This document shows, piece after piece, positions 52,234-64,000 of a stretch of 64,000 nucleotides of DNA. The DNA is from an uncultured Candidatus Saccharibacteria bacterium. GTDB taxonomy: Bacteria; Patescibacteriota; Doudnabacteria; UBA920. The first letter of the stretch is position 1. Each line of letters starts with the position of its first letter. The DNA lies in assembly GCA_964520505.1 (NCBI GenBank), contig CAZFQP010000001.1, positions 45,113-109,112 of the forward strand. The letters run 5' to 3'. A program made the position numbers and the translations under genes. The notes beneath the pieces are model-generated. The model made no database searches. It saw nothing but the letters and a program-made list of their open reading frames with translations, and was not told where the DNA came from.

Positions 52234-52308
52234 TGGTGCGCCCGGGTGGAATCGAACCAACATCAATGCCTTAGAAGAGCACTGCTCTATCCATTGAGCT
52301 ACGGGCGC
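52234..52308 (-). tRNA. tRNA-Arg (anticodon TCT), CCA encoded
   Basis: Acceptor GCGCCCG/CGGGCGC, anticodon loop CTTCTAA, T-loop GGTTCGATTCC. Confidence 0.8.
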
Positions 52309-52464
52309 TCGTGATTAAAAAAGTATACTTTAGCCGGCCTTCGCAATTTTATTTGATCCTGTCTAGTCGATGATTGCTTTGGCGCGCAGACTTCGTTTTT
52401 TCGATTAGTCTACACTTCACCATTCTTAGATTTGGCGTAAGCCAGACGAAGCTTTAGCGAAGTC

Positions 52465-52541
52465 TGGTGATCGCGGCAGGAGTCGAACCTGCGACCTTCA
52501 GCTCCGCAAGCTGACGCTCTATCCAACTGAGCTACGCGACC
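52465..52541 (-). tRNA. tRNA-Arg (anticodon read as GCG), CCA encoded
   Basis: Acceptor GGTCGCG/CGCGATC (G-U at pair 2), anticodon stem TCAGC/GCTGA, loop TTGCGGA, T-loop GGTTCGACTCC. Confidence 0.65.
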
Positions 52542-52859: not shown

Positions 52860-53054
52860 TTGGAGGAGGTGATTTATGTGCAAAACTTCTATATGTATAT
52901 GTGTGACGTCTGCGGATTTTCGAGGCAGAACGATGGCTATTGTCCGCATTGTGAAATACCGCTGACGGAATATAGCAAAGAAGAACAAAGAGAATATCAG
53001 GTGGATATGGAAGAAGCGATGCGGGCGATGAGTGAATATAAGTGGTATGTGTAG
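52860..53054 (+). CDS. Small zinc-ribbon protein (CxxC...CxxC); true start probably the GTG after GGAGGAGGTGA
   Basis: MYMCDVCGF...YCPHCE; strong SD GGAGGAGG. Confidence 0.5.
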   Translation: MEEVIYVQNFYMYMCDVCGFSRQNDGYCPHCEIPLTEYSKEEQREYQVDMEEAMRAMSEYKWYV

Positions 53055-53172: not shown

Positions 53173-54237
53173 TTATTTTTTATCGTGGAATTTTTTATGA
53201 ATGTCACGCAGGCCTTGGTTGGTAATGTGGGTGTAAATTTGCGTGGTGGTAATAGACGCGTGGCCCAGCAGGGTTTGCACAGAACGAATGTCAGCTCCGT
53301 TTTGCAGCAAGTCTGTGGCAAAACTGTGGCGTAAAGTATGTGGGCTAACTTTTTTTATTATTCCTGCTACCCGGCAATATTTTTTTATTATTCTTTGGAT
53401 TTGCCTAACAGTTAGTCCGCTGGCTTTATTGGTGCTATTTTTATCAGCGTTTTTGCCAAAGCCTTGGCTGGCAATTTCTTTTTCAACTTTTTTTTGCTCG
53501 GCTAATATTTTGGCAGCCTTGGAGCCGGCAGATTGTTTGGAGTCAGGGGATACTTGACCGATTTCCGAGTGGCCGACAAACAGCGCTTTGCTGTTATCTT
53601 TTCGTTTAGCCAGATATTTTTTTATGGTTTCGGCTGCTTCATCCGACAAAAACACCAGACGCAGCTTGCTTCCTTTGCCGCGTACGGTGAATTCCCTCCG
53701 GTCGAGGTTAATACTTTCAGTTTTTAAAGAAGCCAATTCGGAAACGCGCAAGCCCGTGGAAAATAGTGTGTGCAAGATTGCTGAATCCCGCAGGCGCAAC
53801 AGTTCGTTTTTTTCTTGGGAAATAGCTGAAAATAATCTTTCCAGTTCTTCCTTTTCCAAAAACTCCACCTGGCGTTGGGGATTTTTGGGCAGTTCAATTT
53901 TTTCAGGAGATAAAGTTTTTACGTCCTGCTTTGCCAGGTATTTTAAAAAGGCGCGAAGGGCTATTAAATGGTAATTTTGGGTAATTAATTTAAGACTATT
54001 GCCCTTGTTGTCGGTAAGTCGGTTGAGAAAGAGCCGATATTTTTTTACGGTTTCTAAGTCTATATTTTTCGGGTCAAAAATGTTTAAAGTTGCCGCAAAG
54101 GCAAGAAACTTATGCAGATAACGGTAATAAGCCGCAATAGTGTTGCGGCTTTGGTTTTTTCCAATCTCACAGTATTCCAAAAACTCAGAGATATAGCGGT
54201 AAAGAGGGGAGTCTATTTTTATTTTAGTTTCCACCAT
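53173..54237 (-). CDS. Tyrosine recombinase (XerC/XerD/phage-integrase family) with an internal roughly 80-aa low-complexity insertion
   Basis: C-terminal catalytic region HTLRHSFATDLLQNGADIRSVQTLLGHASITTTQIYTH (R...HxxR...Y); insert KRKDNSKALFVGHSEIGQVSPDSKQSAGSKAAK...NADKNSTNKASG upstream of it. Confidence 0.8.
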   Translation of the reverse strand: MVETKIKIDSPLYRYISEFLEYCEIGKNQSRNTIAAYYRYLHKFLAFAATLNIFDPKNIDLETVKKYRLFLNRLTDNKGNSLKLITQNYHLIALRAFLKYLAKQDVKTLSPEKIELPKNPQRQVEFLEKEELERLFSAISQEKNELLRLRDSAILHTLFSTGLRVSELASLKTESINLDRREFTVRGKGSKLRLVFLSDEAAETIKKYLAKRKDNSKALFVGHSEIGQVSPDSKQSAGSKAAKILAEQKKVEKEIASQGFGKNADKNSTNKASGLTVRQIQRIIKKYCRVAGIIKKVSPHTLRHSFATDLLQNGADIRSVQTLLGHASITTTQIYTHITNQGLRDIHKKFHDKK

Positions 54238-56097: not shown

Positions 56098-56109
56098 AAT
56101 GAATTTTTA

Positions 56110-56139
56110 ACCCCCGGGTAATTCCGGGGGTTTTAGTTT
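56110..56139 (+). terminator. Rho-independent terminator CCCCCGG-GTAATT-CCGGGGG plus TTTTAGTTT
   Basis: 7-bp GC stem plus T-tract. Confidence 0.7.
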
Positions 56140-56190
56140 ATCAAGTGCTTGTTTCTTTCCCCAGTATTGCTTGTGTGTTAATATAAAAAT

Positions 56191-56607
56191 ATGAAATGTA
56201 TTTTTTGTGACATTGTGAAAAATAAGGTAGAGAGTTTTAAGGTTTGGGAGAATAATGAGTTTATTCTTAAATTGGATATTAATCCCATCAAGCCCGGGCA
56301 TTTGTTATTAATCCCGAAAAAACATATACCTGATGTTTTTAAAATGCCAAATAAAGATTATGGTAAGCTTTTTGCTTTGATTAAAAAAGTTGTACCAATA
56401 TTAAAGTCTATTTCCAAAGCTAAGCGGATAGGGTTGGCGATTGAAGGTTTTGGGGTTGACCACGCGCACGTTCATCTTGTCCCCGTGAATACGGGAAACG
56501 AACTTAATCCGGTAAAGGCTAAAAAGGCCCCAGTAAGCGAACTAAAAAAACAGCAGGCTTTATTCATTAGTAAATTTAAAAAATATAAATTAATTAAGTC
56601 AGTTTAA
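56191..56607 (+). CDS. HIT family hydrolase
   Basis: Histidine triad VDHAHVHLVP. Confidence 0.8.
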   Translation: MKCIFCDIVKNKVESFKVWENNEFILKLDINPIKPGHLLLIPKKHIPDVFKMPNKDYGKLFALIKKVVPILKSISKAKRIGLAIEGFGVDHAHVHLVPVNTGNELNPVKAKKAPVSELKKQQALFISKFKKYKLIKSV

Positions 56608-56621
56608 TATATTTAGAAAAT

Positions 56622-56655
56622 AAAAATCCCTCTCGATATATCGGGAGGGATTTTA
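56622..56655. terminator. Bidirectional terminator ATCCCTCTCGAT-AT-ATCGGGAGGGAT with flanking A/T tracts
   Basis: Roughly 11-bp stem with one mismatch. Confidence 0.6.
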
Positions 56656-56666
56656 GTTTATCTTAC

Positions 56667-58334
56667 CTACCCTTGGTTTTTTGTTAAATCAACCAATGTG
56701 GTTTCTTTGAGGTCGTTATTTATGGGTAAGCTAAAAATAAAGCTTGAACCCTTGCCTGGACCCGGGCTCTCGGCCCAAATTTTGCCCTTGTGCTGGCCAA
56801 TAATGATTTTGGCGACATACAAGCCAAGTCCGAGTCCCGCGCTCTGCTTGACCGATTCTTTGCCCCGGGAGAATTTTTCAAAAATACTGTCGGCTTCTTC
56901 CGGGGAGATTCCTTTTCCTGTATCCTGGGTCTGGAAAATTATTTGGCCGTTCTCGGCGCGTAGGCTCACATTAACGCTTCCGGCCTTGGTATATTTTATG
57001 GCATTATCGATCATGTTATTCATAACCTGCCTGACTTTTTCTTTGTCAGCCATAATCTCCGGGAATTTTCCTTTGGGAATTTTAAAGGTTAATGCCAGTC
57101 CTTTTTCTTTGGCGATTGGCTCCAATTGTTCAAAAGTAATTTTGGCTAAATCTAAAAGATTGGCCGGCTGGAACAAAAATTCCATTTTCCCTCGCTCAAT
57201 GCGCGAAACATTAAGCATGTCGTCAACCAAAGAAATAAGTGAGTTATTGGTGCGGTTGGTTTTTTCCAGAATTTCTTTTTGCTCAGCCTTTAGTTTGCCG
57301 TAATCACCATCTAGAATGGAACTTAAGTACCATTTAATAGTTGCCGGCGGAGTGCGCAGCTGGTGGGAAGCAATGGTAATAAATTCGCTTCTGGCTTTAT
57401 CCAAAGCCTTTAGCTTCTCATTGGCATCTTCTAACTGTTTGGTTAAAATTTCCAATTTTTCTCTTTGTTCAACTTCTTTTCTAACACTTTTAAGTAATAT
57501 CGTACTTATTACCAATAAAATAAGGAAAATTATGAAACGTAATGCTATTTCAAATGAGCTCTTTGATAGAATAACTTCTACAAAACTTGCAACAAGTAGT
57601 AAAAAAGTTGCAATCTCTGTGGAAATGACTTTTGCATTAAAAAGATGGTGTTTTAATATCGCATAGGCAGTAAAAATTATAAAAGGGAATACAAAAACTG
57701 AAGCTAGTGGAATAAAACTATAATTTTGGAAAAAGTTTGGCGCAATAAAGTTAAAAGAAATTATTAATAAAAAGGTTAGGGCTGTGCCTGAAAAGAGCAA
57801 ATTAAGTTGAGTTTTTTGTATTAGAGTTGTTTTTGTATGTCTTTTAATGAGTTGTATAATACTGGTAATAACTAGACCGATAGCCACAATGGCAAATAAA
57901 AATATTCCTGGGCCTGGAATAGCCTCTGCTACTTGGCCAATATTTTTTGTGGGTAAAACCGATGAATACATCAAAGGGGTTAAAGTGATAATAGATGTGA
58001 CAGTAACAAGCCAGATTAGGTATTTTTTTACAAAAAATGGCAGTTCTTTTTGTTCATCCGGATACACGTATGTTAACAAAAAGAATGAGTAAGCTTGCCA
58101 AGTAGCGCAGAACATAACAAGTCGTATAAACCATAAAATAATTAAAGTATCTTGGAATTGGTAGAGCAAAAAATTAAATATTCCCCAAATTGAACTTATA
58201 AATGTAAATAAGAAAAAGTAGTTATTTGTTTTGCTTTTTGTGTTGCTCAAATAAACCACTAATCCCAATAAAATATTTGCAGCGGTTGCAATGCCGACGG
58301 AAAGTAGTCCTAAATTTGTTAGTAAATTTGTCAT
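56667..58334 (-). CDS. Sensor histidine kinase with N-terminal 7TM-receptor-type membrane domain (start likely the MTNLL Met, 1 nt after the upstream gene)
   Basis: HisKA H-box (FITIASHQLRTP), HATPase N/G boxes (NMIDNAIKYT; GLGLGLY), 7 N-terminal TM helices, coiled-coil linker. Confidence 0.8.
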   Translation of the reverse strand: MTNLLTNLGLLSVGIATAANILLGLVVYLSNTKSKTNNYFFLFTFISSIWGIFNFLLYQFQDTLIILWFIRLVMFCATWQAYSFFLLTYVYPDEQKELPFFVKKYLIWLVTVTSIITLTPLMYSSVLPTKNIGQVAEAIPGPGIFLFAIVAIGLVITSIIQLIKRHTKTTLIQKTQLNLLFSGTALTFLLIISFNFIAPNFFQNYSFIPLASVFVFPFIIFTAYAILKHHLFNAKVISTEIATFLLLVASFVEVILSKSSFEIALRFIIFLILLVISTILLKSVRKEVEQREKLEILTKQLEDANEKLKALDKARSEFITIASHQLRTPPATIKWYLSSILDGDYGKLKAEQKEILEKTNRTNNSLISLVDDMLNVSRIERGKMEFLFQPANLLDLAKITFEQLEPIAKEKGLALTFKIPKGKFPEIMADKEKVRQVMNNMIDNAIKYTKAGSVNVSLRAENGQIIFQTQDTGKGISPEEADSIFEKFSRGKESVKQSAGLGLGLYVAKIIIGQHKGKIWAESPGPGKGSSFIFSLPINNDLKETTLVDLTKNQG

Positions 58335-58335
58335 T

Positions 58336-59391
58336 TTATTTGGAGATAATTTCTTCAGTCGAAAGCCGTGGGGTTGTTGCAGACGGAGCGGACGATTCAC
58401 CGACCCGAAACATAAAAATTATATTTTGTTTGTCAGAATTTATTAGAGTTGATACTTTTGCCATTGATTGCTCGATTTCCTTAATATGTTCAGGGGCAAG
58501 TTCTTGTCTTTCTGCGGCAATCAATATTTGATTAAGTAAAACTAGTCCCGCAAGTGGCTGTAATGATAATCCCATTGAGGTTGTTAATAACCAAGTGCGC
58601 TGTAATAACCTACCACTAAAGACAAAATCATTTTTTGAATTTCCTGGCGAGACTATGGCTCCAATTGCCCCGGAGTTAGAATATATCTTGGAATTTTCTT
58701 TGGAGATAAATTTTGCTAACCCAAATTTGTCCATAAAACTCATTATATTCCAGGAAGAACATAATTTGAAAACAAGCTGTTGTATCGGATTCATTTCCAG
58801 AGTTTTTATGAACATCTTGTCGTTTATTTCTGAACCTTTTTGGCCCCAGCTAATATTGCTGAACAAGAATTTGTGCAGCTTTTTGTTTTGTAAAACTATT
58901 TTTTCATTAATGCTTAATAATTTAGCTAAAGCTTTTACTTTTTCGCGTTCCGCGGCCAGTATAACTTTGCCGTTGAAAGAATCAATTTTTAAGTTTAGTA
59001 TTGCTGAAATTTGTTCTTTAGGTACCGATTTATCTTTGTATGGCTTGCGGTTTGTATGCCTTTTACTTATGAAATTGTATAAGTAATCAGCTTCTTTGTC
59101 TGTAGGCGTGAAAGTTAGTGAGGCTACAAGATTTGGGTTTGAACTTCTTGGAAATAAACTAATTTCTGTATCAAATTTGTGGGCAAGAGCAACGATTTTG
59201 ATGTTTTCAATAAATGCTCCATGTGAGATGTAAGCAGCTTTCTGGTCAAAATTATAAACGGATTGATCTTTTTCTGGTAAGTTAAATATTTCCAATCCAC
59301 CAGGGATAATTTTAAATTTCCATGGCTGGCAATTATCGCCAGATGGAGCAAAATTTGCTTCCGTAAGAATTTTTTTTATTTTTTCAATCAT
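58336..59391 (-). CDS. Double-length nitroreductase-fold (FMN) oxidoreductase, SagB/McbC-like
   Basis: PSGDNCQPWKF near the N-terminus is the nitroreductase-family signature; 351 aa is about twice a canonical nitroreductase. Confidence 0.55.
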   Translation of the reverse strand: MIEKIKKILTEANFAPSGDNCQPWKFKIIPGGLEIFNLPEKDQSVYNFDQKAAYISHGAFIENIKIVALAHKFDTEISLFPRSSNPNLVASLTFTPTDKEADYLYNFISKRHTNRKPYKDKSVPKEQISAILNLKIDSFNGKVILAAEREKVKALAKLLSINEKIVLQNKKLHKFLFSNISWGQKGSEINDKMFIKTLEMNPIQQLVFKLCSSWNIMSFMDKFGLAKFISKENSKIYSNSGAIGAIVSPGNSKNDFVFSGRLLQRTWLLTTSMGLSLQPLAGLVLLNQILIAAERQELAPEHIKEIEQSMAKVSTLINSDKQNIIFMFRVGESSAPSATTPRLSTEEIISK

Positions 59392-60521
59392 TCAACGCCC
59401 AATTTTTTTAATAAAGAAACTTTATGTTTTTTATTTTTTTCTTCCCCAAAGAAACTGTCTATATTAATATCGTATCTTCCGCTTTTTAGCGGCTGGCCCA
59501 ATAATATTTTTCTGCCAATATTTGCCAGCACTGAACCACATAAAGTTGCCGCGCTGCCAAGTTGGGGCCAGGAATATAAAGTATTGCCAACTTCTAAAAC
59601 GGATTCGAGCATTCTTACGCTGGAAAGCTTTGCGCCTGCAATCTTAGCCATAATTTTAGGAAGGTTTCGAGGGGGGATTAATTTAAACTCTTCGGAGGTC
59701 ATGGATCCTAAAAGTCCGTGCAGGATTTGAAGTTTTTTATTTTTATCGTATCTTTCGATATCGGCAATCACGCCGTCTCCGTTATCTGCGGCCATTATAA
59801 CCGGTATGCCTAGCGGTCTAACCATTTCCCTTATTTTGATTTTTAAATACGGATAATCAGTTTCTTCTATCAATAAATCAATTTTATTTTTTAACAACGA
59901 ATGAAGATTTTTTTCGTTAATGCCTTCAGGATAGATTTTTATCTTAGAGTAAGGATTAATTTCAAAAATTTGTCTGGCGACGGCCTTGGTTTTGTTAAGT
60001 CCAAGATTATAAAAACCTGTTCGTATTCTATTAATGTTGGATCCGGAAATGCTATCGGGATCCGCTAAGGTGAGAAATTTTCCGCCGCCTGTCAAAGCAA
60101 TAGTTAGTGCGACATGGCTGCCAACGCTCATCCCCAAGATCACAATATGGCTGTTATAGAATTTTTGTTGTTCCTCACTAGTAATTAAATTTCTATTTCT
60201 TCCGGTTCTAAGCTCCGTATGTATGTCTTCTTTAAGAAACAAAACCATTTTTTTTAACCAAGGAAAATAAAACCATTCCGTCCGGTGTTTGTTTTTTAAT
60301 TTGAATTTCTCAGACTCTTTTTTGTAATCCGGTAAAAATCTGGTTTTGGGATTGCGCAGCTGGTAAAGTTCCTCTAGTTGCATTTCTATTTCATTAACAA
60401 AAGTTACCCCTGCCGAAGACTGATTTATTTTAGCAAGGGTTTTTTGCCAATTGGTAATATTTTTTATGCGAATTGGTTGCCACAGTTCGCGTTCCTCAGT
60501 TGTTTTAATGTTTTTTTTCAT
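59388..60521 (-). CDS. ThiF/MoeB/E1-like adenylyltransferase with about 120-aa N-terminal extension
   Basis: Rossmann nucleotide-binding VILGMSVGSHVALTIALTGGG starting near residue 128, then the E1-like core (DPDSISGSNINR...). Confidence 0.65.
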   Translation of the reverse strand: MKKNIKTTEERELWQPIRIKNITNWQKTLAKINQSSAGVTFVNEIEMQLEELYQLRNPKTRFLPDYKKESEKFKLKNKHRTEWFYFPWLKKMVLFLKEDIHTELRTGRNRNLITSEEQQKFYNSHIVILGMSVGSHVALTIALTGGGKFLTLADPDSISGSNINRIRTGFYNLGLNKTKAVARQIFEINPYSKIKIYPEGINEKNLHSLLKNKIDLLIEETDYPYLKIKIREMVRPLGIPVIMAADNGDGVIADIERYDKNKKLQILHGLLGSMTSEEFKLIPPRNLPKIMAKIAGAKLSSVRMLESVLEVGNTLYSWPQLGSAATLCGSVLANIGRKILLGQPLKSGRYDINIDSFFGEEKNKKHKVSLLKKLGVE

Positions 60522-60530
60522 TTCGCGTAT

Positions 60531-62030
60531 TTATTTTATCGTCCATTTTTGCTTTCCGCCGCCTTTGAAGTATGGAGCGCTTCTATAAGGCCAAAGGGTA
60601 ATTTTCGGGGTATTTTTTTTTGGCATGGCAGAGTGATTGTTTCGAAATTCCGAATTTTTCTCCAAAAGAGTTCTAATAAGAGAAGCTGTTAATAATTTAC
60701 GAAAATTTGACGGGGGTAAAACATTTTTTTTAAGTTCAATATTAACATGTAGAAAAGGGTTGTGGTTTTTATCTCGCTCTAATATGGAACTGAACTTGCC
60801 GGTAAGTTTATTGGACTGTTCTGTAAAAAGTAGCGATTCTTTAATATGCTGCGGATAAATATTAGCTCCATACCAGCTAACCACCATATCACTTCTTTCA
60901 TAAACATAAACAAAGGGGAGCTTCCAAACTGTTTCATAAATTTTTTTGTTTACGCTTTCTTTTTTTAAGTCAACACCATTTTTTGCAAAAAGCTCTCCCA
61001 TTTTTCCATAATTTATTATGCCCCCTTTATCCTTCAGGTCGTATCGAAATAGGGGCAGGCCGCTCTGCGAGGAACAAATCAGTTGTCCTTTTTCTTCTTG
61101 GAAATAAAACATCTCCGGTAAATATTGAGCTAAGGTTGGTTGGGTTAGCGAATCGATGAAAATCGGGGAGTTTTTTAGTTTTCCTTCAACATCAAGGCGT
61201 CTTATTAAAACACTAATCGGTGTTTCATAAGCAAGAGTTCCTTGGTCAACAGTTCCATAATGATTTAGAGTTGATAAGTATGGGTTAGAAAGTCCGGCTT
61301 GATTTAAAATATAATCCCGAAAATTTTCAGTAAATGACTCCGCTGAAAAAACAAATTTAAGTTTATCTTTTTTCCAGTTTATCTTTTTTTCCAAGCCCTC
61401 ATCAAGAACTTCTTTTACAAATGGGGGATACCCGCCAATAATAATTTGGTCAAATTTCCCACCAAATTTTTTTATCGCGTTTAAAACTTCATTTTTATTT
61501 AAACCAGGGTTAATTATGCTTAAGCGATATTGTCCTGTATCCGCAATTAATTTTATTGCCTGGTAAGTAAATAAGCCCCCAATCCATACCCCTAAAGCAA
61601 AAGCATTTATATAAAGAGTTGATTTATTATCAATTTGAAAATTTGTTTTTAAATATAGTTCAGCTAATAATGCGTATTGTTGATCTTGCTCTGAGCTTCT
61701 CGGGAAATAAAAAGGTTCGCCTGTTGAACCAGAAGTAGCAGCAATTACCCATTGCTTGCTAGAAAATTTTCCATCCCAACAAAGTTGTTCCAAGGGGTAT
61801 TGGCGTAAATATGTATCCTTTGAGATAGTTGGTATTAATGTAAAATCGGAAGCCGATCGAATTTTGTTTGGATTGATTTTATTTTTTTTGAGAAAATGCT
61901 TATAAGCTGGAACCCTTGCAGACATTTCGTGAAAAAGTTTTAGCGCCATTTTCTCGCCGCGCTTAATCCAGTAAGTTTCGGGTTTTGTTTTTAACGCAGC
62001 TAATAATTTTGTGGCCTTGGGTGTCGGCAT
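60531..62030 (-). CDS. PaaK/coenzyme-F390-synthetase-like adenylate-forming enzyme (acyl/aryl-CoA ligase-like)
   Basis: P-loop-like ATSGSTGEPFYFP motif typical of PaaK/COG1541; 499 aa. Confidence 0.6.
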   Translation of the reverse strand: MPTPKATKLLAALKTKPETYWIKRGEKMALKLFHEMSARVPAYKHFLKKNKINPNKIRSASDFTLIPTISKDTYLRQYPLEQLCWDGKFSSKQWVIAATSGSTGEPFYFPRSSEQDQQYALLAELYLKTNFQIDNKSTLYINAFALGVWIGGLFTYQAIKLIADTGQYRLSIINPGLNKNEVLNAIKKFGGKFDQIIIGGYPPFVKEVLDEGLEKKINWKKDKLKFVFSAESFTENFRDYILNQAGLSNPYLSTLNHYGTVDQGTLAYETPISVLIRRLDVEGKLKNSPIFIDSLTQPTLAQYLPEMFYFQEEKGQLICSSQSGLPLFRYDLKDKGGIINYGKMGELFAKNGVDLKKESVNKKIYETVWKLPFVYVYERSDMVVSWYGANIYPQHIKESLLFTEQSNKLTGKFSSILERDKNHNPFLHVNIELKKNVLPPSNFRKLLTASLIRTLLEKNSEFRNNHSAMPKKNTPKITLWPYRSAPYFKGGGKQKWTIK

Positions 62031-62037
62031 AAAATTG

Positions 62038-63075
62038 CTATTTATTGAAAATTTTCTGGGCTATTTCATCCGCAATTAGATTAGTTGCCTTATTTTTTAA
62101 TTGGCTTTGCTTAATAATTGTGTGCATCGTGGACTTTATAACTTCTACTTTTTTATAAATCTCCTGGTCAGAAATTTTAGGATTTTCGTATTCTGACACG
62201 ACACAAATTAATCCGCCGCCATTAACCACATAATCCGGGGCATAAAGGATGCCTAATTTATGCAATAATTCGCCGATTCCGGGGTGGGTGAGTTGGTTAT
62301 TCGCACCGCCTAATATTATTTGGGCTTTTATTCTTGGAATTCGTTTTGAGTTTAAAGCATGCGCCATAGCGCAAGGGGACAGCACATCAACTTTTTGGTG
62401 GAAGATTTCATCAACCTTGGTTATTTTAACTTTCGGAAAAGTTTTTGCTATTTTCTTCAGTGTTAATTTATCCGTATCTGTTATATAAATATTTTTTGCT
62501 TTTCCATAAATTGATTTCAATAAAGCTGAACCAATTTTCCCAACACCCTGGATGGCAAATGTTCTATTTTCTAATTCTGTAGTGCCAAAAACATTTTTTA
62601 AACATACATCGAGGGCAAAATTAATGCCTAAGGCGGTGAATTTTACAGGATCAGTTTTTACCCCTACGACGTAAGGGCTGTTTTTCTTCATTTCTTTAAC
62701 TTCCTGTGCGGAAATGCCGACGTCGGCCCCGGTAATAAATAGCCCGTGAAAATAATTAATTTTGTGCGCGTATGCTTTTAGCAGTTTGTTTTTGTTTACA
62801 AGTTTTTTTGGAGAGATAATTACAGCTTTGGCACCCCCATACTTTAATCCAGCCATAGCCGATTTATATGACATAAGTTTGGAAAGGCGCACAACATCTC
62901 TTAGTGCTTCATTTTTATTTGCGTATTGCACAAAGCGAGTTGCCCCAAAGGCAGGAGTTTTGTCGCTGCCACGATGCAAAGCAATGAATCCTTCCAATCC
63001 AGCGTCGGAATCTTGGAAATACGATATAACCCGGTGGTTGTCAAAATCTTTTATATCCTTAAAAAAATCTTCCAT
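62038..63075 (-). CDS. Glu/Leu/Phe/Val-family amino-acid dehydrogenase (Leu/Phe/Val dehydrogenase size class)
   Basis: Catalytic-Lys motif KYGGAKAVI and NAD-binding GVGKIGSAL. Confidence 0.75.
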   Translation of the reverse strand: MEDFFKDIKDFDNHRVISYFQDSDAGLEGFIALHRGSDKTPAFGATRFVQYANKNEALRDVVRLSKLMSYKSAMAGLKYGGAKAVIISPKKLVNKNKLLKAYAHKINYFHGLFITGADVGISAQEVKEMKKNSPYVVGVKTDPVKFTALGINFALDVCLKNVFGTTELENRTFAIQGVGKIGSALLKSIYGKAKNIYITDTDKLTLKKIAKTFPKVKITKVDEIFHQKVDVLSPCAMAHALNSKRIPRIKAQIILGGANNQLTHPGIGELLHKLGILYAPDYVVNGGGLICVVSEYENPKISDQEIYKKVEVIKSTMHTIIKQSQLKNKATNLIADEIAQKIFNK

Positions 63076-63138
63076 TTATTTTAGTTTCAGATAGTGTTTA
63101 TCTTTTAAGTCAATTAATTATACCACATCCATGGAATT

Positions 63139-63157
63139 TATGGTATAATTAAGCTAC
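63139..63157. promoter_or_regulatory. Second copy of TATGGTATAATTAAGCTAC extended -10 element, upstream of the orphan receiver gene
   Basis: Exact 19-mer identity with 50463-50481. Confidence 0.5.
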
Positions 63158-63173
63158 TAATAACATAAAATTT

Positions 63174-63569
63174 ATGCCAACAAAAAAACCCATTCAAATT
63201 ATCGTGGCAGAAGATGATATGGCCATGGCCGAGATTGTTACCCACAAGCTAAACGCCGCCGGGTTTGAAGTCAGGCACGCGGAAAACGGCACTCAAGCCC
63301 TGGAAATGTTTAATCAGGCCCCCCCGGATTTAATGCTGCTTGATCTAATGATGCCGGAAATGGATGGCTTTCAGGTTTTGGAGGCAATAAGAGGCAATAC
63401 AGACAAAAAAAAGGCAGCCTTGCCAATAATAGTTTTAAGCAACCTCTGGAGTAACGAAGATATTTTAAAAACGCAAGCGCTTAAAGTAGACGGCTATATG
63501 GTTAAGGCCTACTTTACACCGGACGAGATTTTAGCTAAAATAAATGAAGTTTTAAGTAAAAAATCATAA
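63174..63569 (+). CDS. Stand-alone response-regulator receiver domain protein (CheY-like)
   Basis: Phospho-acceptor D in LLDLMMPEMDG, N-terminal acidic pair (AEDD), K in the C-terminal region; no output domain. Confidence 0.8.
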   Translation: MPTKKPIQIIVAEDDMAMAEIVTHKLNAAGFEVRHAENGTQALEMFNQAPPDLMLLDLMMPEMDGFQVLEAIRGNTDKKKAALPIIVLSNLWSNEDILKTQALKVDGYMVKAYFTPDEILAKINEVLSKKS

Positions 63570-63673
63570 TTAAGTTTCAAACAGGTTGGCAGATATAGCG
63601 AAGACTTGTGGCTCCTAAGCGGGGTTATAGGGAATCGTAAATTTGCCAGTCTCTTGAAACAAAAGGTAATAAA

Positions 63674-64000
63674 ATGGAAGCAAAGAAAATTTCTTGCAAA
63701 ATCGGCGAGGCTGATTTTACATTTGAAACCGGCAAATTAGCCGGGCAAGCCAGTGGTGCCGTGTTAGCCCGCGTAGGCGACACGGTTGTTTTGGCTACAA
63801 CAATAATGAGCGACAAGGCTAGGGAAGGAATAGATTTTTTCCCGCTGTTGTTAGATTACGAAGAACGTCTTTACGCCGCGGGAAAAATTAAAGGCTCGCG
63901 CTGGATTAAGCGAGAAGGAAGAGCGACCGATGATGCCATTTTAAAAGGCCGCGTTATAGACAGAACTTTAAGACCATTATTTCCTGACGGCATGCGTAAC
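63674..64000 (+). CDS. pnp: Polyribonucleotide nucleotidyltransferase (PNPase), N-terminal fragment running off the window
   Basis: MEAKKISCKIGEADFTFETGKLAGQASGAVLARVGDTVVLAT...GIDFFPLLLDYEERLYAAGKIKGSRWIKREG is the canonical PNPase N-terminus (RNase PH-like domain 1). Confidence 0.85.
   Translation, partial: MEAKKISCKIGEADFTFETGKLAGQASGAVLARVGDTVVLATTIMSDKAREGIDFFPLLLDYEERLYAAGKIKGSRWIKREGRATDDAILKGRVIDRTLRPLFPDGMRN

Follow-up and report, generated by a model that had tools for sequence, protein, structure and literature searches.

Bacteria of the Candidate Phyla Radiation (CPR, or Patescibacteria) have tiny genomes with very limited biosynthesis, and how they sense their hosts or one another is little understood. 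A locus in a 64,000-nucleotide stretch of DNA from an uncultured Candidatus Saccharibacteria bacterium (contig CAZFQP010000001.1, positions 45,113 to 109,112; GTDB lineage Patescibacteriota, Doudnabacteria, UBA920; this whole stretch is called the window below) raises the question of what such an organism might make and sense. Its cassette has retained four biosynthetic enzymes side by side with one of the few two-component systems in CPR genomes. The genes encode an amino-acid dehydrogenase (AADH), a PaaK-like adenylating enzyme, a ThiF/E1-like enzyme, a nitroreductase-like protein (NTR), and a seven-transmembrane (7TM) sensor histidine kinase, all on the minus strand and opposite a gene for a single-domain receiver. 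The answer that we favor, with moderate confidence, is that the operon encodes four enzymes which together turn amino acids into a small molecule of the oxazolone (azlactone) type, in a pathway that is coupled to the sensor kinase.

A model given only the letters of the DNA and their open reading frames (ORFs) had taken the locus for an uncharacterized modification or biosynthetic system (referred to here as the sequence-only reading). One part of that description stands, since the cassette is coherent and so far undescribed, with a new acyl-donor half and a coupling to the kinase. The core oxazolone chemistry, on the other hand, is known, and the combination is not wholly uncharacterized because the ThiF-like protein and the NTR are a split form of a characterized oxazolone synthetase.

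The ThiF-like and nitroreductase-like proteins match the two halves of an oxazolone synthetase

The ThiF-like protein (59388-60521, minus strand) has a Pfam ThiF domain (70.7 bits) at residues 108 to 343, behind an N-terminal extension of about 105 amino acids, and its residues 8 to 366 align to positions 5 to 347 of the 722 positions of the NCBIfam model PRK07877, "Rv1355c family protein" (299.1 bits). The NTR (58336-59391, minus strand) aligns to positions 377 to 717 of the same model (174.2 bits). It also matches PRK14851 (199 bits) and the model of the tandem-fold Acg family flavin mononucleotide (FMN) oxidoreductases (145 bits), and its only solved relative by sequence is Acg (PDB 2YMV). 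Because both proteins match halves of one model, they are a split form of one known fusion protein, with the ThiF-like protein as the N-terminal half and the NTR as the C-terminal half of Rv1355c. This protein is TrzS, which carries out the ATP-dependent cyclization and then the O2-dependent desaturation of N-acyl-tryptophan to N-acyl tryptazolone (Kleetz et al.; PMC12856293). Such chemistry had first come to light with the Pseudoalteromonas enzyme OxzB (bioRxiv 10.1101/2020.06.11.147165), and a split form is known from TyzB and TyzC of Mycobacterium tuberculosis, of which TyzC is able to act on N-acyl-Tyr ahead of cyclization (PMC10404671).

The scores of the two window proteins sum to 473.3 bits (299.1 + 174.2) against a PRK07877 cutoff of 476, and each half is under the cutoff because the model is full length. 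A fused ThiF-NTR orthologue from the same cassette in another CPR genome (L027, 743 amino acids) passes the cutoff with 534.2 bits over model positions 12 to 715. When joined, the window proteins are collinear with three fused CPR proteins and also with two proteins that PGAP assigns to the Rv1355c family and that are encoded on Mycobacterium and Rhodococcus plasmids (24 to 27% identity over about 690 residues). This alignment takes in the N-terminal domain of about 105 amino acids, which bears a W..PW motif, as well as the motifs for adenylation and those for FMN, APSGxNxQPW and RxTNR. In the window NTR, the latter two read APSGDNCQPW and RHTNR and are shared with the fused orthologues. The conserved motifs of the ThiF-like protein are RNRN-IT-EEQ, GMSVGS, LADPDSISGSNINR, and ETD(222). 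Asp222 lies in an (E/D)ExD motif and, like the other ThiF motif residues, is invariant in 67 homologues; it is likely the counterpart of TrzS Asp217, the mutation of which abolishes cyclization (PMC12856293). The ThiF-like protein is thus predicted to be an ATP-dependent cyclase with an adenylation domain that has intact ATP and Mg motifs, and the NTR is proposed to be a flavin-dependent C-alpha/C-beta desaturase.

The N-terminal extension of the ThiF-like protein had suggested a different role, in which this domain helps the enzyme to activate the C terminus of a peptide or protein and the NTR serves as a SagB/McbC-like dehydrogenase, as in the maturation of ribosomally synthesized and posttranslationally modified peptides (RiPPs). 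The extension is present, as the sequence-only reading had said, but a RiPP clamp role for it fell away, since the domain is shared with the N terminus of the Rv1355c family. By a comparison with TrzS-type proteins that was made by sequence alone, the extension is a feature of this family of small-molecule enzymes and therefore no evidence for a RiPP recognition element. The SagB/McbC and ocin-ThiF framing likewise found no support, as TIGR03605 and TIGR03693 were not among the matches at an E value of ≤0.01. There is no YcaO, ThiS/MoaD, or precursor-sized ORF, just as had been noted earlier: a search for ORFs of at least 20 amino acids found none between the genes, which are spaced by 7, 9, -4, and 1 nt (in the order AADH, PaaK-like, ThiF-like, NTR, and kinase, with the minus sign for a 4-nt overlap and the last gap presupposing the ATG at 58334 as the start codon of the kinase). 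Fusions of AADH with the PaaK-like protein, described below, point to free amino or oxo acids rather than to a peptide. A peptide-directed system is therefore improbable in our view. A RiPP/TOMM (thiazole/oxazole-modified microcin) pathway was also tried as a candidate for the region 56100-64000 and rejected, with no intergenic ORF of at least 20 amino acids, no match to the ocin_ThiF or SagB models, and no YcaO.

Generic models do match the ThiF-like protein, with 28 to 68 bits for ThiF, MoeB, and TcdA and up to 46 bits for the E1-E2 models of PADLOC, and some homologues are named tRNA threonylcarbamoyladenosine dehydratase by their sources. These matches could be taken to indicate a housekeeping role in MoeB/ThiF sulfur-carrier activation or in the formation of cyclic N6-threonylcarbamoyladenosine (ct6A) by a TcdA-type enzyme, or else an E1-based antiphage system. 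The scores are far from those of true members, with 67.6 versus 159 bits for ThiF (PRK08644), 39.8 versus 266 for MoeB, and 45.3 versus 304 for TcdA in a cutoff range of 150 to 650 bits, and there is no carrier protein, rhodanese domain, E2, JAB, or CD-NTase partner. Scores and context together largely refute these functions, which we consider the least probable of all those weighed here. Among the antiphage candidates (CBASS Cap2, Bil, and 6A-MBL), PADLOC gave only generic E1-core matches of at most 46 bits, and it gave nothing relevant for the other five proteins. The objection that the sequence-only reading had raised against itself, namely, an ordinary MoeB/ThiF protein beside a generic NfsA/NfnB nitroreductase in a linkage that relatives do not share, does not apply: the ThiF-like protein scores 28 to 68 bits where 150 to 650 would be expected of an ordinary one, the NTR is not a generic NfsA/NfnB, and the linkage is strongly conserved.

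The cassette is conserved across CPR, and its genes are fused in several combinations

Conservation was examined in 80 loci from species-representative genomes of at least 10 candidate phyla or classes, in which ORFs were classified with profiles of the cassette proteins. Components were counted where the sequence reached at least 4 kb upstream and at least 7 kb downstream of the PaaK-like gene, as it did in 50 loci. Near this gene, a kinase was found in 47 of the loci, a ThiF-like gene in 46, an NTR gene in 37, and a receiver gene in 30, while 43 had either a dehydrogenase (28 loci) or an aminotransferase (15 loci). Over all 80 loci, the median gaps between cassette genes range from -4 to +7 nt, and since this tight linkage recurs in 80 species-level CPR genomes, it is not due to chance. 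Protein identity is 50 to 60% across Doudnabacteria, Saccharimonadia, Paceibacterota, Roizmanbacteria, and Gottesmanbacteria, and that genomes so streamlined have retained the cassette to this degree suggests that its function is important.

Every enzyme of the cassette is joined to another in some fusion protein. We found AADH fused to the PaaK-like protein (P0257, 847 amino acids), PaaK-like fused to ThiF-like (P0242, 863 amino acids) and ThiF-like to PaaK-like (P0309, 880 amino acids), and a triple fusion of AADH, PaaK-like, and ThiF-like proteins (P0303, 1,242 amino acids), as well as ThiF-NTR fusions of about 720 to 760 amino acids in six loci (L027, L041, L065, L066, L076, and L082). The enzyme order in the fusions is the gene order of the window, which speaks strongly for a single pathway in which the four enzymes work in that order.

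A fifth enzyme is found in some lineages but not in the window. An alpha/beta-hydrolase is fused to the C-terminal side of the NTR in five loci (about 630 to 650 amino acids) and is encoded as a free-standing protein between the NTR and the kinase in nine further loci (hydrolase loci L010:11227-12108, L041:13752-14666, L043:12555-14465, L017, L030, L047, L048, L052, L066, L075, L051, L064, L070, and L073). It matches Abhydrolase_1, and its best NCBIfam matches are HsaD/BphD-type hydrolases, under their cutoffs. This enzyme may open the ring or process it further.

Some third-party assembly records (TPA_asm) titled "uncultured Gammaproteobacteria" or "Polyangiaceae" hold a CPR-type cassette with 48 to 54% identity and a CPR-like gene order (L017, L020, L024, L026, L027, L034, L038, L040, L043, L057, L062, L066, L068, and L082). 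These bins have probably been given the wrong taxonomic labels.

The PaaK-like protein is a candidate CoA-independent ligase

The PaaK-like protein (60531-62030, minus strand, 499 amino acids) had no match in a Pfam scan. Its match to TIGR02155 PaaK has 38.6 bits (cutoff, 646.3) and covers the N-terminal region only, the F390 match is likewise weak, and a profile search of the PDB gave 35 bits. An AlphaFold (AF2) model of the protein has a pLDDT of 89, and with this model Foldseek found BT_0428 (4R1L; E = 3e-25, target TM score of 0.72) and PaaK1/2 (E of about 1e-24), followed by 2-hydroxyisobutyryl-CoA ligase (HCL) and the amide/ester ligase ClxA. By its model, then, the protein has a PaaK-type ANL fold with a short N-domain and a C-terminal cap, in line with the earlier assignment as a PaaK/F390-like adenylating enzyme, for which the weak N-terminal matches and the position of the model in the PaaK clade both speak. 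It failed as a member of the PaaK equivalog, and paa genes are absent from the neighborhoods of the window and of the inspected relative loci.

The family has more than 1,700 relatives in a 90%-clustered database, of which the best 120 are about 500 amino acids long and 50 to 86% identical and come, by their source names, from Doudna-, Magasanik-, and Saccharimonadales, Paceibacterota, and other Patescibacteria. Among 1.84 billion representatives of 50%-identity clusters, there were 518 matches at an E value of ≤1e-30. The PaaK-like protein is a member of a distinct, mostly CPR family of PaaK-fold adenylate-forming enzymes. Its conserved motifs are TSGSTGEPFYFPR, NHYGTVD, and RYDLKD, and its C-terminal YF..GGKQKW tail (window positions 60531-60560) is near-invariant, with Lys493 and Trp496 invariant in 71 PaaK-like sequences; AlphaFold confidence is low for this tail. 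In ClxA and NatL2, a C-terminal extension supplies a catalytic Lys to the partner subunit, which may be compared with the GGKQKW tail. The ThiF-like gene has the PaaK-like gene as its constant partner, with the two being direct neighbors in 52 of 68 loci and fused in several lineages, and the most constant companion of the PaaK-like gene itself is the kinase.

In the known systems, the N-acyl aromatic amino acid is supplied by the acyl-CoA-dependent N-acyltransferases OxzA, TyzA, and TrzA (bioRxiv 10.1101/2020.06.11.147165; PMC10404671; PMC12856293). We found no acetyltransferase or autoinducer-synthase family among the Pfam-annotated neighbors in L001, L003, and L004 and no conserved extra gene of acyltransferase size in the 80 loci, and a tblastn search of low sensitivity, with a putative TrzA homologue and a Streptomyces GNAT partner as queries, gave nothing at an E value of <0.1 in 1.41 Mb of CPR sequence. 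There are PaaK-fold enzymes (ClxA, NatL2, and AjiA1) in which the acyl-adenylate is attacked directly by an amine or hydroxyl group with no CoA (PMC12519233, PMC9400959). As an acyltransferase is not seen in the cassettes and CoA-free amide and ester ligases of this fold exist, we infer by analogy that the PaaK-like enzyme forms the N-acyl amino acid as a CoA-independent ligase. Such a route to N-acyl amino acids would be new: an ATP-dependent PaaK-fold ligase would replace the acyl-CoA transferase, probably with a 2-oxo acid derived from an amino acid as its donor, as would befit organisms that lack fatty-acid synthesis.

The closest solved structures of the PaaK-like protein, phenylacetate-CoA and 2-hydroxyisobutyryl-CoA ligases, would also fit a catabolic or salvage role, in which AADH or the aminotransferase, together with a CoA ligase for aryl acids or 2-oxo acids, feeds aromatic amino acids into energy metabolism while the ThiF-like protein and the NTR are unrelated, and source annotations do label the family phenylacetate-CoA ligase. 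We think this very improbable, given a PaaK score of 38.6 against a cutoff of 646 bits, the lack of further catabolic genes in any inspected cassette, and the fusions P0242, P0309, and P0303, which bind the PaaK-like enzyme to the ThiF/NTR chemistry.

A dehydrogenase or an aminotransferase accompanies the PaaK-like gene

The first gene of the operon, AADH (62038-63075, minus strand), encodes an ELFV-family protein with Pfam matches above cutoff to PF00208 ELFV_dehydrog (68.6 bits) and PF02812 ELFV_dehydrog_N (59.4 bits). Its best NCBIfam match is the tryptophan dehydrogenase (TrpDH) ScyB (NF035922), at 257.8 bits under an equivalog cutoff of 600, and in the PDB it matches leucine dehydrogenase (LeuDH; 203 bits) and TrpDH 5B37 (192 bits). 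The equivalents of the catalytic residues Lys68, Lys80, and Asp115 are invariant in all 42 cassette dehydrogenases. In the aligned pocket stretches, LeuDH has LGGTR, ITAED, and GGVINV, TrpDH 5B37 has MGATR, ITGQD, and GGLINV, and the window AADH has FGATR, ITGAD, and GGLICV. Across the cassette dehydrogenases, the equivalent of LeuDH Ala113 is Gly in 42/42, that of Val291 is Leu in 35/42, and that of Gly42 is Ala in 41/42. We take these three positions, from the older literature on LeuDH and phenylalanine dehydrogenase (PheDH), to line the side-chain pocket; Gly and Leu at the first two of them would also set PheDH (Gly124/Leu307) apart from LeuDH (Ala113/Val291), and the argument here rests on the direct comparison of TrpDH with LeuDH. 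By class, AADH is an NAD(P)-dependent dehydrogenase that acts on L-amino acids and belongs to the Leu/Phe/Trp type, and its pocket looks suited to an aromatic or bulky side chain because it matches TrpDH rather than LeuDH at the pocket positions. Such a pocket agrees with the origin of all known natural oxazolones of the TrzS type, which stem from Tyr, Phe, or Trp (PMC12856293).

In other cassettes, the place of the dehydrogenase is taken by a class I/II aminotransferase (PF00155, 240 bits), as is the case in Saccharimonadia. Of the 37 loci in the 80-locus set that have AADH, 36 place it directly upstream of the PaaK-like gene, the aminotransferase lies at most two genes from the PaaK-like gene in 25/26 loci, and the two occur together in a single locus only. 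From this nonorthologous displacement it follows that the conserved need is the interconversion of an alpha-amino acid and a 2-oxo acid, and both the AADH domains and the displacement bear out the earlier suggestion that the substrate is an amino acid or a 2-oxo acid.

A scytonemin-like pathway was considered and rejected, as the matches to ScyB and to a "scytonemin sensor kinase" were far under cutoff and there was no ScyA or ScyC. One relative locus (L003:15865-16143) has, directly upstream of the NTR gene, a 92-amino-acid ORF with a match to Pfam Lyase_aromatic (phenylalanine/histidine ammonia-lyases, PAL/HAL). It may be a gene fragment, and it gives a further hint of aromatic amino-acid chemistry.

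The sensor kinase is linked to the biosynthetic genes

The kinase (56667-58334, minus strand) has Pfam matches to HisKA_7TM, HisKA, and HATPase_c, and its hydropathy profile shows about nine hydrophobic segments in the first 285 amino acids with only short loops between them, from which the sensor is predicted to be entirely membrane embedded. Kinases that bind hydrophobic autoinducers (CqsS, LqsS, LuxN, and AgrC) likewise have membrane-embedded sensors. The receiver (63174-63569, plus strand, 131 amino acids, predicted phospho-acceptor Asp57) has a Pfam Response_reg domain at residues 9 to 123, without an output domain. The two-component system had been thought to be wired to the enzymes, which agrees with a kinase that begins 1 nt from the NTR gene and is found in 47/50 loci. 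In 44 of 53 loci the NTR adjoins the kinase, and it does so even where insertions split the cassette. These insertions, in L003, L008, L015, and L036, always fall between the block of AADH or aminotransferase, PaaK-like, and ThiF-like genes and the NTR-kinase pair; that in L003 (11300-16143) carries a restriction-modification methylase and a helicase, and those in L008, L015, and L036 consist of four to seven genes. The kinase and the receiver would either sense a hydrophobic product or tie synthesis to an environmental cue, and the sequence does not decide between the two.

Proposed pathway

In the pathway that we propose, AADH would act on a scavenged L-amino acid, aromatic or bulky, and deaminate it to the 2-oxo acid, a step that an aminotransferase would take over in other CPR lineages. 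The PaaK-like enzyme would then adenylate a carboxylic acid, most simply this 2-oxo acid, and transfer it directly to the amine of an amino acid. The product would be an N-acyl amino acid, so that the enzyme would do the work for which the known pathways use an acyl-CoA-dependent N-acyltransferase. By homology to TrzS, TyzB, and OxzB, the ThiF-like enzyme would adenylate the free carboxylate, upon which the amide oxygen would close the oxazol-5-one ring, and by homology to TyzC and to the flavin-dependent oxidase (FDO) part of TrzS, the NTR would set the C-alpha=C-beta double bond. In some lineages, the alpha/beta-hydrolase would work further on the product.

The same gene order and the fusions of AADH, PaaK-like, ThiF-like, and NTR proteins are equally compatible with another product, a cyclic dipeptide. 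In that case the PaaK-like protein would be an amino-acid ligase, the ThiF-like protein would adenylate the C terminus of the dipeptide, the N-terminal amine would close a 2,5-diketopiperazine, and the NTR would desaturate it in the manner of the cyclic dipeptide oxidase that acts in albonoursin biosynthesis. Enzymes of the NTR family do desaturate diketopiperazines (de Rond preprint, bioRxiv 10.1101/2020.06.11.147165), and ThiF-type adenylation followed by the attack of an intramolecular nucleophile is a general mechanism of that family (PMC12596934). The closest family of the ThiF-NTR pair is nevertheless the oxazolone synthetase TrzS and not the cyclic dipeptide oxidases, a conserved AADH or aminotransferase in organisms that scavenge amino acids is left without a clear reason, and the Foldseek structural neighbors include no dipeptide ligase of the PaaK fold. 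A diketopiperazine pathway thus seems unlikely, if less so than the other alternatives discussed above.

Several points weigh against the oxazolone pathway that we favor. The pathway is known here from genes and a predicted structure, and at its first step the enzyme class is established while direction and substrate are deduced. The split proteins of the window fall individually under the full-length equivalog cutoff, and of the TrzS residues Asp217, Arg540, and Gln651, a counterpart is proposed for the first. NTR was not found near 13 of the 50 cassettes. The absence of an acyltransferase comes from the inspection of neighborhoods and an insensitive single-sequence tblastn search, and the gene could sit elsewhere in the genome. 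The closest solved relatives of the PaaK-like protein are CoA ligases, and neither sequence nor fold discriminates between an amine and CoA as the acceptor. Many CPR inhabit anoxic groundwater, while the characterized FDO step needs O2. Finally, the receiver carries no output domain.

Since the cassette is conserved across CPR, it is probable that these bacteria, minimal as their metabolism is, both produce and sense a small molecule derived from amino acids. A more speculative extension, and to our minds a doubtful one, is that the cassette is a self-contained chemical signaling circuit across many CPR/Patescibacteria. Its product, formed from a scavenged aromatic amino acid, would be a hydrophobic oxazolone or the ring-opened N-acyl-dehydroamino acid, the 7TM kinase would be the receptor of this product or would read oxygen via the O2-dependent flavoenzyme step, and output would pass through the single-domain receiver. 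If true, no chemical language of an autoinducer-like or host-sensing kind would have been described before in episymbiotic bacteria of ultrasmall size. What the oxazolones do physiologically is still open, with signaling having been suggested (PMC12856293), and an oxazolone cassette linked to a kinase makes the question of a signaling role directly testable.

Comparison with known systems and homologues outside CPR

The closest known system is TrzA/TrzS (Rv1356c/Rv1355c) of mycobacteria and Rhodococcus (PMC12856293), with which the window cassette shares the enzyme family of the last two steps, the N-terminal domain, an Acg-like FDO, and, by prediction, an aromatic amino-acid substrate. It differs in having separate ThiF and NTR genes, no TrzA-type acyltransferase seen in the cassette, and the addition of a PaaK-fold enzyme, an AADH or aminotransferase, and a cotranscribed 7TM kinase, and identity to the actinobacterial proteins is 24 to 27%. 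TyzA/TyzB/TyzC of M. tuberculosis (PMC10404671) resembles the cassette in the split of a ThiF homologue and a single-domain FDO of about 340 to 370 amino acids within one operon, and its FDO, TyzC, can use the N-acyl amino acid itself. TyzB (318 amino acids), however, has no long domain at its N terminus, the best scores of the window proteins are those against the Rv1355c model, and TyzA is an acyltransferase resembling acyl-homoserine lactone (AHL) synthases, of a kind not seen in the window cassette. In OxzA/OxzB of Pseudoalteromonas rubra (bioRxiv 10.1101/2020.06.11.147165), the pairing of ThiF and nitroreductase domains likewise leads from an N-acyl aromatic amino acid to an oxazolone, but OxzAB is a two-gene proteobacterial operon with an N-acyltransferase, fatty acyl-CoA donors, and no kinase. 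ClxA, NatL2, and AjiA1 (PMC12519233, PMC9400959) share the PaaK-type ANL fold and are the precedent for the role proposed for the PaaK-like enzyme; sequence identity to it is about 14%, and ClxA is 100 amino acids shorter and acts on aminohydroxybenzoates.

As to layout, the cassette resembles CqsA/CqsS and LqsA/LqsS/LqsR, which is a functional analogy only, with no claim of sequence relation to the synthases. In these systems of Vibrio and Legionella, autoinducer synthase genes stand beside a polytopic kinase without a periplasmic domain, together with a receiver.

We found no description of this cassette in the CPR/Patescibacteria literature that was searched. What is new with respect to the literature found is the PaaK-fold ligase in place of an acyltransferase, the dedicated enzyme for amino-acid/2-oxo-acid interconversion, the optional hydrolase, the near-obligatory 7TM kinase, and the wide conservation in CPR. 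Oxazolone biosynthesis, so far described in Proteobacteria and Actinomycetota, would extend to a third and very different group.

Homologues outside CPR occur with other partners. On plasmid 1 of Gemmatirosa kalamazoonensis (L088:6700-9353), a gene for an Acg-family FDO (96 bits, full length) directly precedes one for a homologue of the PaaK-like protein (24% identity); there is no ThiF nearby, and the neighboring ORFs have no family matches. As TyzC acts on N-acyl-Tyr before cyclization, this pair fits the synthesis of an N-acyl amino acid followed by its desaturation. In Nonomuraea gerenzanensis (NZ_LT559118.1; L085:5699-9371), a HisKA_3 kinase and a NarL-type regulator are directly followed by a PaaK-like homologue (35% identity at 94% coverage), with no ThiF or NTR found within 8 kb, and the association of the PaaK-like gene with a two-component system therefore reaches beyond CPR. 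Same-clade ThiF homologues (35 to 38% identity) are found on a Kitasatospora plasmid (L086:7233-10117), where a 616-amino-acid ORF is followed by ketoacyl-ACP synthase III (KAS III), and on a Streptomyces plasmid (L087:7701-9499), where the next gene encodes a GNAT acetyltransferase. Because the partners of ThiF, PaaK-like, and FDO proteins vary outside CPR (GNAT, KAS III, or PaaK-like), the acyl-donor enzyme appears to be an exchangeable module in this family of ThiF-like enzymes.

Operon boundaries, control regions, and neighboring genes

The unit is a five-gene operon opposite the receiver gene, as shown by the short spacings, a downstream hairpin, and a divergent region with one TGGTATAAT element per strand. 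The tight minus-strand operon and the divergent orphan receiver of the sequence-only reading were recovered as ORFs at the same positions, and their linkage recurs across CPR. The longest ORF of the kinase opens at a GTG at 58400; the ATG at 58334 is backed by an 86%-identical relative, in which the kinase begins 3 nt past its NTR gene. Downstream, a palindromic hairpin with a 14-bp stem (56623-56654) forms a terminator-like site between the convergent kinase and HIT genes and is likely a bidirectional terminator that ends the operon.

The divergent control region between AADH and the receiver is 98 bp long (63076-63173). An extended -10-like element, TGGTATAAT, can be read at 63117-63125 on the minus strand toward the operon and at 63141-63149 on the plus strand toward the receiver. 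Together the two form a perfect 9-bp inverted repeat (63117-63149; ATTATACCA-N15-TGGTATAAT), so that an extended -10 is readable on either strand, and they are candidate promoters for the two transcription units. The inverted pair is conserved as a perfect repeat in none of the fetched relative loci; the 86%-identical relative has TGGTATAAT and TGTTATAAT in the corresponding divergent region.

Elsewhere in the window, upstream of the cassette and unrelated to it, there is a 64-amino-acid ORF with two CxxC pairs that resembles a zinc ribbon (52860-53054). A gene for a XerC/D-type recombinase with a Lys-rich insertion ahead of its catalytic C-terminal part lies at 53173-54237, and two neighboring tRNA-Arg genes with the anticodons TCT and GCG are found at 52234-52541.

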